DNA of 64,000 nucleotides from Escherichia phage SUT_E420. Below the pieces are notes generated by a model, which was not told where the DNA came from, did no database searches, and was given only the letters and a program-made list of their open reading frames with translations. Within the stretch, counting starts at the first letter, position 1; each line of letters opens with the position of its first letter. Positions 7,700-14,047 of the stretch are shown here, in pieces. The stretch is taken from the sequence record OQ990039. The stretch is one strand, 5' to 3'. Position numbers and translations under genes: made by a program.

Positions 7700-7770
7700 A
7701 CCGACCGTAGGATTCGAACCTACATCTTCCACCAGTTACGGCTTGATAATACCAATTATACTAGGACGGC
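7700..7770 (-). ncRNA. tRNA-like element (T-arm and acceptor present, no anticodon stem)
   Basis: Perfect T-arm GTAGG-TTCGAAT-CCTAC, 3' acceptor GGTCGGT, D-loop GG, but no foldable anticodon stem and no encoded CCA; possibly the 3' module of a longer structured RNA. Confidence 0.3.
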
Positions 7771-10871: not shown

Positions 10872-11573
10872 TCAAATTTTCATTTTTTCGATCATAGCTG
10901 CAACACAATAGCTTTCAACTAAGGCATCAAATGCAGGATCATGCTTAACCGGATAGATCCCATAACGAATGGTGTCCATCTTCTCCATTTTAGCTTTTGC
11001 CCAGCTAATACCTTCAGCCTCTAGATCTTTGTAACTATAATCAGCTTGCATCCAGAGATTACGAAGAGATCGAACATTGCCCAAATTCCAGAATTTCCAC
11101 GGAACTACCTCTTCATTGGTTCCAGCATGGAATGTGTTTGCAGAGTAGATAGTCATATCAAACTCTGGGCCATTACCATAATACAAAGCATTTTCGCCTA
11201 GAGCCAACTCCATAATATTTTGAGCCATAGAGAAGGCAGCATAGTTTGAGCCAAATTTATTAGTGCAATGATGTTTACCATTTTGGAAGGCAATCAGTTT
11301 TGGATTACGTTCCTTCATAGCTTCCATAATGTGAATAGCAGACGGGCTATTTTTAGCTTGATCCATCCAGAATGCTAGAGTAGATGCTGTAACTTTAGCA
11401 CCAGAATTAAGCTGATCTTGTACATCCAAAGTAACAAATACTAGATCAGGGTCTTTATCAATTCCATGCATAGCCACAAAAGCGAAAGAAGGCATTGCGA
11501 TATGAGTAGTACCACAATCTCCTGGAGTTCCCAGAGATTCAATATCTAGCATACCAAATGGTTTTACTTTCAT
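10872..11573 (-). CDS. DEDDh-type 3'-5' exonuclease-like protein (233 aa)
   Basis: Exo I-like LDIESLG, Exo III-like HDPAFDALV (His-x4-Asp), central acidic residues. Confidence 0.5.
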   Translation of the reverse strand: MKVKPFGMLDIESLGTPGDCGTTHIAMPSFAFVAMHGIDKDPDLVFVTLDVQDQLNSGAKVTASTLAFWMDQAKNSPSAIHIMEAMKERNPKLIAFQNGKHHCTNKFGSNYAAFSMAQNIMELALGENALYYGNGPEFDMTIYSANTFHAGTNEEVVPWKFWNLGNVRSLRNLWMQADYSYKDLEAEGISWAKAKMEKMDTIRYGIYPVKHDPAFDALVESYCVAAMIEKMKI

Positions 11574-12159: not shown

Positions 12160-12675
12160 TTACTTCGCTTTACGCTTGCGAGCTGGTTTAGCAGATTTAC
12201 GAGCAGAATCACCAGTGAACTTAATGCCTACACCGTAACACAGAGCGCGAACATTATCTTTACTATACTCTACGCCAAAGATATTTGGCTTAACAGAACC
12301 AAACTGTCCACGAGTATCGCGCAATACATCTGCTGTTGGTTTACGCTTCTGGTTAACTGCCTTCTCGTAGTCTTTCATAGACATACCATTACGAGAGAAC
12401 AATTCAGCCCCAGCGTTGAAACTCAAAGATACTGGGACAGATTTGTGGCCGTAATTTTCTACATACATAACCATTTTGTAGGATTTACGGGTGGCATTTT
12501 TAGCTTTAGGCTTCTTACGAATCGGAGCCGGATTATTCAATGCTTGCGCAGCCTGAGCATCGGTAGGATGCTTACGCAGGTGACGTTCCAGACGAGCTTT
12601 GCGATTAGCCTCGGTCTGCGGGAAAGTTTTAACTGCCGGGGCTGCTTGAGTTTTTGCGTTTTTCTGCTTAGCCAT
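12160..12675 (-). CDS. basic protein, possible nucleic-acid binding (171 aa)
   Basis: Lys/Arg-rich termini (KPARKRKAK); own promoter 12714-12742. Confidence 0.45.
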   Translation of the reverse strand: MAKQKNAKTQAAPAVKTFPQTEANRKARLERHLRKHPTDAQAAQALNNPAPIRKKPKAKNATRKSYKMVMYVENYGHKSVPVSLSFNAGAELFSRNGMSMKDYEKAVNQKRKPTADVLRDTRGQFGSVKPNIFGVEYSKDNVRALCYGVGIKFTGDSARKSAKPARKRKAK

Positions 12676-12713: not shown

Positions 12714-12742
12714 ATTATACGAGAATTTGAAGCGTTTAGCAA
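12714..12742 (-). promoter_or_regulatory. sigma70-type early promoter (minus): -35 TTGCTA, 17-bp spacer, -10 TATAAT
   Basis: Plus strand ATTATA-N17-TAGCAA. Confidence 0.7.
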
Positions 12743-12750
12743 ATGAATTT

Positions 12751-13200
12751 TTAATTTATTAACTGTAAGCTTCTTTTAATTTCAGACCTTACTTGCATCA
12801 AAAGGACTCCTAAAGTATTATCCCCGATGCCTCGGCAAACACCCCAATATGTATCTCCCCAGGTATTTCCTTCGATCAAAGTTGCATTTTCTGTTGCTAA
12901 CAGTTTATCTCTTAAATCAGGAATTGCAAACTTTAATCGTAAAAGCTCTAGCATTACATCATCTTTTACTTTATCCCAGTCAGAGCGTAGGGTTAATTTA
13001 CGTCCTCTACGTTTAGCAACTCCTGCATTTAGGGAGCGGAGTACATGAGCTACATCATCTTTTTGGTCGGATTTCATAGCCTGAAAAGCATGTTCTACAG
13101 TATCAGCATGCCATATCTCATTTAGATATTCGAAAGTAATTGGTGATAAATAAAAGTTAGATAAGAAACTATAAGTACCTTTAAATTCAGTAATCTTCAT
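12751..13200 (-). CDS. NADAR-family (YbiA-like, DUF1768) protein (149 aa)
   Basis: FLSNFY...EHAFQAMK and LIEGNTWGDTYWGVCRGIGDNTLGVLLMQVR closely parallel the E. coli YbiA signature. Confidence 0.75.
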   Translation of the reverse strand: MKITEFKGTYSFLSNFYLSPITFEYLNEIWHADTVEHAFQAMKSDQKDDVAHVLRSLNAGVAKRRGRKLTLRSDWDKVKDDVMLELLRLKFAIPDLRDKLLATENATLIEGNTWGDTYWGVCRGIGDNTLGVLLMQVRSEIKRSLQLIN

Positions 13201-13481
13201 TTTTTACGCCCCGCATCTTTAGCCTCCTCGGCTGTATAGATATACTGATAAGCCCCTTTGGAGTAGGCTGGAGCAGTACACATTTTCTTACGCTCAATCT
13301 CTTCTTGAGCTTTTCTTTCGCGTTCCGCTAATTCTTCGTCCAAATAAACTAAACGTTGTTCTGGAGGAGGTGGAAGACGTGTTTCTGGCTCGCCAATATT
13401 AGCCTTTCTTATTTGACGAGGTGATTGTGCACGTTTTCTCAATGGTTTAAATCCTAATGAATTTGAGTTATAGATCCGCAT
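13197..13481 (-). CDS. hypothetical basic protein (94 aa)
   Basis: ORF overlapping the NADAR start by 4 nt; promoter 13509-13537 upstream. Confidence 0.4.
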   Translation of the reverse strand: MRIYNSNSLGFKPLRKRAQSPRQIRKANIGEPETRLPPPPEQRLVYLDEELAERERKAQEEIERKKMCTAPAYSKGAYQYIYTAEEAKDAGRKK

Positions 13482-13508: not shown

Positions 13509-13537
13509 ATTATACTAAATTATAGGGCTTTAAGCAA
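13509..13537 (-). promoter_or_regulatory. sigma70-type early promoter (minus): -35 TTGCTT, 17-bp spacer, -10 TATAAT
   Basis: Plus strand ATTATA-N17-AAGCAA. Confidence 0.7.
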
Positions 13538-13558: not shown

Positions 13559-14047
13559 TCACATCTCAGCCATTTCAGCTTCAGTAATAACTGTATTACA
13601 TAAGGCGTCTACAGCCTCATTACCACTAATACCAGAATGTCCTTTAACCTTAATAAAGGTAGGGTTAGTATTATGAAAGTTGATATACTGCTGTGTTAAT
13701 TTAAATGCTTCCTGCCAAAGTTCTAGATTAAGAGGAACTTCACCATCTGCTTTCTTCCAGCCTTTCCTTTGCCAAGAAAACATCCAACTTTCCATGCCAT
13801 TTTTGCAATAAGCAGAGTCAGTATAGATAGCAATTGGTCTATTATCTTTTTTAACAGACCAACGTAGGGCTTCTACGATAGCTGTGAGTTCCATCTCATT
13901 ATTTGTAGTTTTAGGATTATAACCAGATTTAGAACCTAAACGATCGTCGTTATCATCATAGACAATAAAACCCCAAGCACCTGGACCTGGATTAGACTTA
14001 CAAGCACCATCTGTGTAAATGTGGAAAACCGACATTATACCTCCCAA
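13559..14047 (-). CDS. rnh: ribonuclease H (RNase HI family)
   Basis: N-terminal IYTDGACKSNPGPGAWGFIV matches the RNase HI active-site region; C-terminal KGHSG...NE..D motifs present. Confidence 0.8.
   Translation of the reverse strand: MGGIMSVFHIYTDGACKSNPGPGAWGFIVYDDNDDRLGSKSGYNPKTTNNEMELTAIVEALRWSVKKDNRPIAIYTDSAYCKNGMESWMFSWQRKGWKKADGEVPLNLELWQEAFKLTQQYINFHNTNPTFIKVKGHSGISGNEAVDALCNTVITEAEMAEM

Follow-up and report, generated by a model that had tools for sequence, protein, structure and literature searches.

Gene content and organization of the locus

The sequence analyzed here, referred to as the window, is a stretch of 64,000 nucleotides from Escherichia phage SUT_E420 (OQ990039). It represents a T5-like phage (Demerecviridae, Tequintavirus), and the segment at 12000-14200 matches Escherichia phage EC148, as well as a few others, at 100% identity. 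By combining the annotation of EC148 with the ORF and Pfam assignments for the window, we obtained the following order of transcription, with every gene on the minus strand: nrdA, nrdB, frd, thyA, two small ORFs, the gene for RNase H, a homologue of T5 ORF085, a gene of the NADAR family, a promoter and the DUF7022 gene. This agrees with an earlier note on this DNA, which had described a neighbourhood of nucleotide-metabolism genes and had placed the NADAR gene just upstream of RNase H and thyA. Both neighbours are present, but the NADAR gene is located downstream of rnh (13559..14047, minus strand; Pfam RNase_H) and thyA in terms of transcription, and it is upstream in plus-strand coordinates only, since the whole set is on the minus strand.

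The homologue of ORF085 (13197..13481, minus strand) was identified from the ORF list and by alignment to T5. It codes for 94 amino acids, belongs to phrog_4593 and shares 91% identity with T5 ORF085, from which its C-terminus diverges. Its TGA stop codon overlaps the ATG of the NADAR gene in the tetranucleotide ATGA at 13200..13197, an arrangement that suggests translational coupling of the two genes. There was no promoter-like site between them. A putative sigma-70 early promoter, equivalent to T5P26, was instead recognized ahead of the ORF085 homologue (13509..13537, minus strand) by direct reading of the sequence and from the T5 annotation. It consists of TTGCTT at 13537..13532, a 17-nt spacer and TATAAT at 13514..13509, with an A/T-rich stretch upstream, and is followed by the Shine-Dalgarno sequence GAGGAGGG and the ATG of the ORF085 homologue at 13481. 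In T5, an almost identical sequence carries the annotation of a putative early promoter, T5P26. The site was missed in the consensus scan because its -35 box matches only 3 of the 6 positions. To judge from its position and sequence, this promoter is likely to drive the ORF085-NADAR pair.

On the other side, a T5P25-equivalent early promoter of the type TTGCTA-17-TATAAT (12714..12742, minus strand), identified in the promoter scan and from the T5 annotation, begins 9 nt past the stop codon of the NADAR gene. This promoter drives the DUF7022 gene (12160..12675, minus strand) and marks the downstream edge of the cassette described below. With this layout, the NADAR gene would be transcribed early, as the second of two cistrons on one transcript.

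A small single-domain NADAR protein

The gene of interest is an ORF of 149 codons, ATG to TAA, located exactly at 12751..13200 on the minus strand. Based on the ORF itself, the Pfam match, an AlphaFold2 model, Foldseek searches and residue mapping, we consider it an adfN-type NADAR gene coding for a predicted guanine-ADP-ribose DNA glycohydrolase. All four of the signature blocks quoted in the earlier note (FLSNFY, EHAFQAMK, WGDTYWG and GDNTLG) were present in the translation, at residues F12-Y17, E36-K43, W114-G120 and G126-G131, respectively. The protein matched Pfam NADAR (PF08719, DUF1768) with 78.8 bits (E = 7.2e-22) against a gathering cut-off of 35.1 and across profile positions 9-163 of 163, which places the sequence match to the family far above chance. 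It also matched phrog_1017, a PHROG without an assigned function (E = 1.2e-44). In sequence searches against solved structures, matches were obtained to E. coli YbiA (2b3w, E = 3e-15) and to the NADAR protein of Phytophthora nicotianae (8bau, E = 7e-7).

The AlphaFold2 model, which was built on an alignment of 32 homologues, had a mean pLDDT of 97.4 and a pTM of 0.91. In a Foldseek search of the PDB with this model, the only significant matches were 2b3w (TM 0.82) and the ADP-ribose-bound 8bau (TM 0.78), while the third match was a weak one to the DarT1-linked Geobacter NADAR 8bat (TM 0.51, E = 0.17). All significant structure matches were thus NADAR proteins, and the assignment to this family that had been made from the motifs was borne out. 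The model has the fold of YbiA, with a helical core that is flanked by small beta-hairpins, and the protein is a small single-domain NADAR without an N-terminal extension. Two ORFs on the opposite strand, 12827..13048 (73 aa) and 12849..13016 (55 aa), were dismissed as shadow ORFs, given the full-length, high-confidence domain in the minus-strand frame.

Conservation of the active site

The structure of the P. nicotianae NADAR shows that the distal ribose is contacted by E43 and E125, and the pyrophosphate by K50, R79, W89, R93, W133 and, via a water molecule, D130 (Schuller et al. 2023, PMC11543638). Mutagenesis has demonstrated that hydrolysis of guanine-ADPr and rescue of cells from DarT1 both depend on the residues equivalent to E43, K50 and the E125 position (PMC11543638). 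We mapped these residues using a profile of the 32 homologues aligned to 8bau, in which the numbering differs from the published one by 2 throughout. The correspondence was E43 to E36, K50 to K43, R79 to R67, W89 to W75, R93 to K79, E125 to E110, D130 to D116 and W133 to W119. All 8 positions that contact ADP-ribose in 8bau were hence matched in the phage protein, one of them (K79) by an Arg-to-Lys replacement. Six of the eight were invariant or nearly so across the 32 homologues, and R67 and K79 fell below the 90% threshold. A single-sequence phmmer alignment to 8bau was rejected for this purpose, as it contained a local shift of three residues at SE[HQ]xFxxxK, which would have put the catalytic Glu and Lys at the wrong positions.

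An alignment to characterized NADAR proteins had been proposed in the earlier note as one check on the function of the gene, and it recovered the complete set of catalytic and ADP-ribose-binding residues, including the Glu and Lys of SE[HQ]xFxxxK and the pyrophosphate-binding Arg, Trp and Asp. By homology to the ADP-ribose-bound Phytophthora protein, E36 and E110 would hold the distal ribose, while K43, R67, W75, K79, D116 and W119 would hold the pyrophosphate. The roles of the individual residues in the phage protein are predicted by analogy with that structure.

Near identity to a protein that counteracts DarT1

Comparison with the BASEL collection revealed that the NADAR protein of the window is identical at 148 of 149 residues to bas33_0070 of phage Bas33 (HildyBeyeler), the single difference being E104 in the window versus K104 in Bas33. 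The protein bas32_0066 of phage Bas32 (IrisVonRoten) is the same as bas33_0070 and is located at the same locus. Column 104 is freely variable in the alignment of the 32 homologues (E, G, L, D, Y, H or N) and makes no contact with the ligand. The two proteins are of the same length, their genes start with the same ATGA overlap, and they occupy the same slot (rnh, ORF085 homologue, NADAR, P25 promoter, DUF7022 gene) in phages of the same genus. Near identity and a gene order common to the window and both BASEL phages identify the gene as an orthologue, and the E104 allele is expected to be functionally equivalent to the K104 allele that has been tested.

The protein of Bas32 and Bas33, identical between both phages, has been named AdfN(Bas32) by Johannesman, Awasthi, Carlson and LeRoux (bioRxiv 2024; Nat Commun 2025, PMC11825919). 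AdfN(Bas32) neutralizes the toxicity of DarT1 in uninfected E. coli, and when supplied in trans it enables the DarTG1-sensitive phages T5, RB69 and Bas25 to form plaques at full titre on cells with DarTG1 (PMC11825919). T5 gains nothing from it on cells with DarTG2, which produces thymidine-ADPr (PMC11825919). T5 itself is inhibited by DarTG1 (PMC11825919), and both our alignment and the T5 annotation show that it lacks the NADAR gene. That a phage without the gene is sensitive to DarTG1 and is rescued in trans was counted in favour of an anti-DarTG1 role. The suggestion in the earlier note that the gene is a counter-defence factor, reversing the ADP-ribosylation of guanine by DarT, is accordingly supported by the identity of 148 out of 149 residues to a protein with anti-DarT1 activity in E. 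coli.

In the available portions of the paper by Johannesman et al. there was no purified-enzyme assay of AdfN(Bas32), the activity being deduced from the rescue in vivo. Our literature search found neither a reported knock-out of the NADAR gene in its native phage (Bas32, Bas33 or EC148) nor data on the native sensitivity of Bas32 and Bas33 to DarTG1, and the HIDEN-SEQ preprint, which was searched for mention of this gene, covers T4 adfN only. The gene would presumably be needed by the native phage on hosts with DarTG1.

An accessory cassette in T5-like phages

A three-way DNA alignment of T5, Bas32 and the window delimited an accessory cassette at approximately 12753..13240, which contains the NADAR ORF and the divergent 3' end of ORF085. 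The three sequences are identical up to window position 12752 on the downstream side, next to T5P25. From the NADAR stop codon the indel relative to T5 continues into the last ~12 codons of ORF085, and the C-terminus of the ORF085 product differs accordingly. As estimated with blastn, T5 is ~445 bp shorter in this region, the match spanning 1021 bp of T5 versus 1466 bp of the query. The ORF085 homologue, for which there was no Pfam match, is rich in Lys, Arg and Glu and is kept across T5-like phages with or without a NADAR gene behind it. Its last ~12 residues exist in two versions that switch with the presence or absence of the cassette.

To determine how widespread the gene is, we searched for it at the protein and DNA levels. 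NADAR copies of at least 95% identity were found with tblastn in 95 phage records. With the segment 12100-13600 as the query for blastn, 94 records covered the whole stretch, while most other T5-like records covered 65-68% of it in two pieces, indicating that the NADAR gene is missing. In total, about 94 of about 445 T5-like records contained the gene; those without it include T5 and the BASEL phage GreteKellenberger. Such a patchy presence is typical of counter-defence cargo and was also counted in favour of a role against DarTG1. A cluster of proteins at 90% identity that includes the window NADAR has 235 members, but this is not a count of NADAR copies since the cluster also contains ORF085 homologues of 92 or 94 aa, products of the overlapping upstream gene. 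The mixture has probably arisen as an artefact of the clustering, through an ORF that was fused or mis-called.

A more divergent NADAR, 60% identical, was identified in the Epseptimavirus Salmonella phage vB_SenS_UTK0009 (NC_111487; locus L005, 1989-2438). The order in this phage is rnh, NADAR, ORF085 and ORF084, as compared with rnh, ORF085, NADAR and ORF084 in the window, and the ORF085 gene beside the UTK0009 copy has the C-terminus of the T5 type. Because the UTK0009 gene is placed one slot upstream and is adjacent to an ORF085 with a T5-type C-terminus, we consider it the product of a separate insertion event, which suggests that NADAR genes have been inserted twice independently into the same early operon of the Markadamsvirinae. 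Outside the T5-like phages, the closest relatives (55-61% identity) were located on phage-like contigs among genes for nucleotide metabolism and DNA modification. The overall distribution is what one would expect of mobile counter-defence cargo.

The contexts of these relatives were diverse. In a Logan contig from SRR12876859 (L011, 6001-6826), a NADAR gene of 61% identity overlaps a gene of the YAcAr (SLOG) family and adjoins genes of the 7-deazaguanine pathway (QueC, PTPS, GTP cyclohydrolase I and radical SAM). Other relatives, among them those of L009 and L010, are next to genes for dUTPase, QueH and nucleoside deoxyribosyltransferase, or to genes for dCMP deaminase, Thg1 and NAD-ligase. 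The NADAR of EP_H11 is larger (218 aa), 43% identical and located in a different, unclassified phage context.

Relationship to YbiA, DarG1 and the T4 protein

The NADAR families have been distinguished by the residue at the E125 position, which is Glu in YbiA, Asp in the DarT1-linked BC4488/DarG1 proteins and His in the phage proteins of the T4 type (PMC11543638, PMC11125620). The window protein has a Glu at this position, E110, whose counterparts in the alignments are E125 of 8bau and the Glu in the LVEH motif of YbiA. It thereby falls into the YbiA family in the sense of de Souza and Aravind, which has Glu rather than Asp or His in the last strand. E. coli YbiA (2b3w) was also the best structural match, with 40% sequence identity and a minimal core that likewise lacks an N-terminal extension. 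The best match among the NCBIfam models was TIGR02464, the equivalog for the N-glycosidase acting on riboflavin biosynthesis intermediates. The score of 66.6 bits was below the curated NCBI cut-off of 73.7, however, whereas E. coli YbiA, included as a control, scored 169.5 and the phage relatives straddled the cut-off with scores of 73.6-90. Against NF053876, the model for the DS-32 NADAR family anti-phage protein, the window protein scored 44.8 bits versus a cut-off of 240, which reflects no more than the shared domain. T4 gp30.3 matched none of the NCBIfam models. These comparisons place the protein at the edge of the YbiA-type group. The designation YbiA-like in the earlier note is therefore apt as regards the diagnostic Glu and the 40% identity but does not extend to membership in the riboflavin N-glycosidase equivalog. 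In the published tree, AdfN(Bas32) falls close to two archaeal NADARs and not within the YbiA-like group (PMC11825919).

The resemblance to YbiA, which is the closest solved structure and the best match in the PDB by sequence, together with the diagnostic Glu and the top rank of TIGR02464, could be taken to indicate a housekeeping N-glycosidase that destroys reactive intermediates of the riboflavin pathway, as implied by database labels such as GTP cyclohydrolase II, COG3236 and riboflavin biosynthesis. We regard this as highly improbable. Apart from the sub-threshold score, no genes for riboflavin biosynthesis were found nearby, the gene being situated among genes for replication and nucleotide metabolism, and its accessory, patchy distribution is unfit for metabolic housekeeping. 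Moreover, the nearly identical AdfN(Bas32) has an anti-DarT1 phenotype that YbiA does not have: although E. coli YbiA can hydrolyse G-ADPr in vitro, it gives no rescue from DarT1 toxicity in vivo (PMC11125620), as opposed to the rescue by AdfN(Bas32) (PMC11825919). Since YbiA is 40% identical to the window protein, family resemblance alone would not have predicted the phenotype. The two also differ in setting: ybiA is a chromosomal gene beside dinG and ybiB and has been placed in a LexA-controlled operon (PMC11125620), while the window gene is early cargo of a phage.

DarG1, the antitoxin of the BC4488 family that is associated with DarT1 (E. coli C7; 8bat of G. lovleyi), performs the same chemistry and has the same opponent, and both DarG1 and AdfN(Bas32) neutralize DarT1 in uninfected cells (PMC11543638, PMC11825919). 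DarG1 differs in having an N-terminal DNA-binding extension and an Asp, D171, in place of the Glu (PMC11543638). In the window protein the core starts from about residue 9 of 149, the diagnostic residue is Glu rather than Asp and the similarity to 8bat is weak, so that it falls outside the DarG1/BC4488 family. Nor did a gene for a toxin or other ADP-ribosyltransferase (ART) adjoin the NADAR gene, the neighbours of which are the ORF085 homologue and the DUF7022 gene.

AdfN(T4), the gp30.3 protein of the T-even phages, belongs to the same superfamily and has the same role as a guanine-ADPr DNA glycohydrolase directed against DarTG1. It is only ~21% identical to the window protein and is reported to have His in place of the Glu. 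In addition, AdfN(T4) was unable to neutralize DarT1 outside of a T-even infection, whereas AdfN(Bas32) was able to do so (PMC11825919). The AdfN proteins of the T4 and Bas32 types are judged to be independent acquisitions.

Proposed role in counter-defence

We conclude that the gene very probably codes for an orthologue of AdfN(Bas32), a NADAR ADP-ribosylglycohydrolase with the role of an orphan antitoxin that protects the phage from defence systems of the DarTG1 type. Established here are the gene, its fold, the conserved active site, the near identity to a tested protein and the operon layout. According to the literature, replication is blocked by the ADP-ribosylation of guanines that DarT1 carries out on phage DNA. 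Upon infection, host DarT1 would add ADP-ribose to the N2 of guanine in single-stranded phage DNA and thereby block replication. The phage NADAR, made early from the T5P26-like promoter along with the genes for replication and nucleotide metabolism, would cut the N-glycosidic bond that links guanine to the distal ribose, freeing ADP-ribose and restoring normal DNA.

The natural target of the protein could be broader than DarT1. It has been shown that NADAR enzymes of the YbiA type and of the type designated 'NADAR' remove cytidine-ADPr and act on RNA, and that cytidine-ADPr is not removed by DarG1 or T4 AdfN (PMC12945103). A YbiA-type NADAR is also the antitoxin of YarT, a toxin other than DarT (PMC11125620). 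The window protein has the Glu of the YbiA type and, judging from AdfN(Bas32), does not depend on a phage-specific context in the way that T4 AdfN does. The gene might thus be a broader eraser of ADP-ribose for which the main selection comes from other ARTs that act on nucleic acids, such as YarT-like or pierisin-like toxins and the enzymes generating cytidine-ADPr or RNA G-ADPr. That selection of this kind has been the dominant one seems improbable to us: the thymidine-ADPr of DarTG2 is not countered, and DarT1-modified DNA is the one substrate that has been tested for this protein. Such a breadth of action would in any case extend the anti-DarTG1 explanation rather than replace it.

We tentatively raise the possibility, without thinking it likely, that this NADAR, which has the Glu and no extension and is of a type active against DarT1 in vivo, unlike E. 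coli YbiA, is a generalist eraser of base-linked ADP-ribose, acting on DNA as well as RNA that carries guanine-ADPr or cytidine-ADPr. In that case, T5-like phages would be protected against several ART-based defences and not against DarTG1 alone, and the 60%-identical Epseptimavirus copy in the adjacent slot would represent the repeated capture of a generalist module.

As a factor against DarTG1, AdfN was already published in 2024-2025, and the window gene is an orthologue that differs by one residue and provides no new lead. The first-pass reading of the sequence correctly singled out a counter-defence gene of which the gene, the family and the phenotype are described in those publications. 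What has been added here is small, namely the status of the gene as an accessory cassette, its predicted co-transcription with the ORF085 homologue from a T5P26-like early promoter, the NADAR of an Epseptimavirus and the correction of the direction of transcription. The presence or absence of the ~450-bp cassette should predict the growth of T5-like phages used in therapy or typing on E. coli or Salmonella that carry DarTG1.

Annotation and other features of the window

The labels given to the NADAR gene in GenBank records of T5-like phages are inconsistent and include GTP cyclohydrolase II, swarming motility protein YbiA, DUF1768 domain-containing protein, riboflavin biosynthesis protein and hypothetical protein. 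Neither AdfN nor an action against DarT was mentioned in any record examined. With many records naming a swarming motility protein, a further rival reading is a role for the product in motility or as another type of host-manipulating effector. All that speaks for this is the annotation carried over from ybiA of E. coli K-12, and the label goes back to a genome-wide screen of K-12 knock-outs that included ybiA (cited in PMC11543638 and PMC11125620), which has no bearing on a gene of a lytic phage and offers no mechanistic basis here; we assign this role a practically negligible probability. Both the swarming motility and the GTP cyclohydrolase II labels are cases of annotation carry-over, and dozens of T5-like genomes in GenBank could have the gene re-annotated as an anti-DarT1 NADAR (AdfN).

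Elsewhere in the window, the Rfam tRNA model matched at 3240-3314 and 7699-7770, both on the minus strand, with 40.3 and 35.5 bits, respectively. Neither was called by ARAGORN, and the second corresponds to a feature annotated as tRNA-OTHER in EC148. Both may represent tRNAs of the phage's tRNA cluster that have diverged or degenerated. Finally, an ORF of 233 codons at 10872-11573 (minus strand) is annotated as a metallopeptidase in EC148, Bas33 and T5. Its product matched the Pfam family of Rv2179c-like 3'-5' exoribonucleases (E = 5e-8) as well as PHROG 255, exonuclease (E = 1e-51), and the peptidase label therefore looks doubtful.
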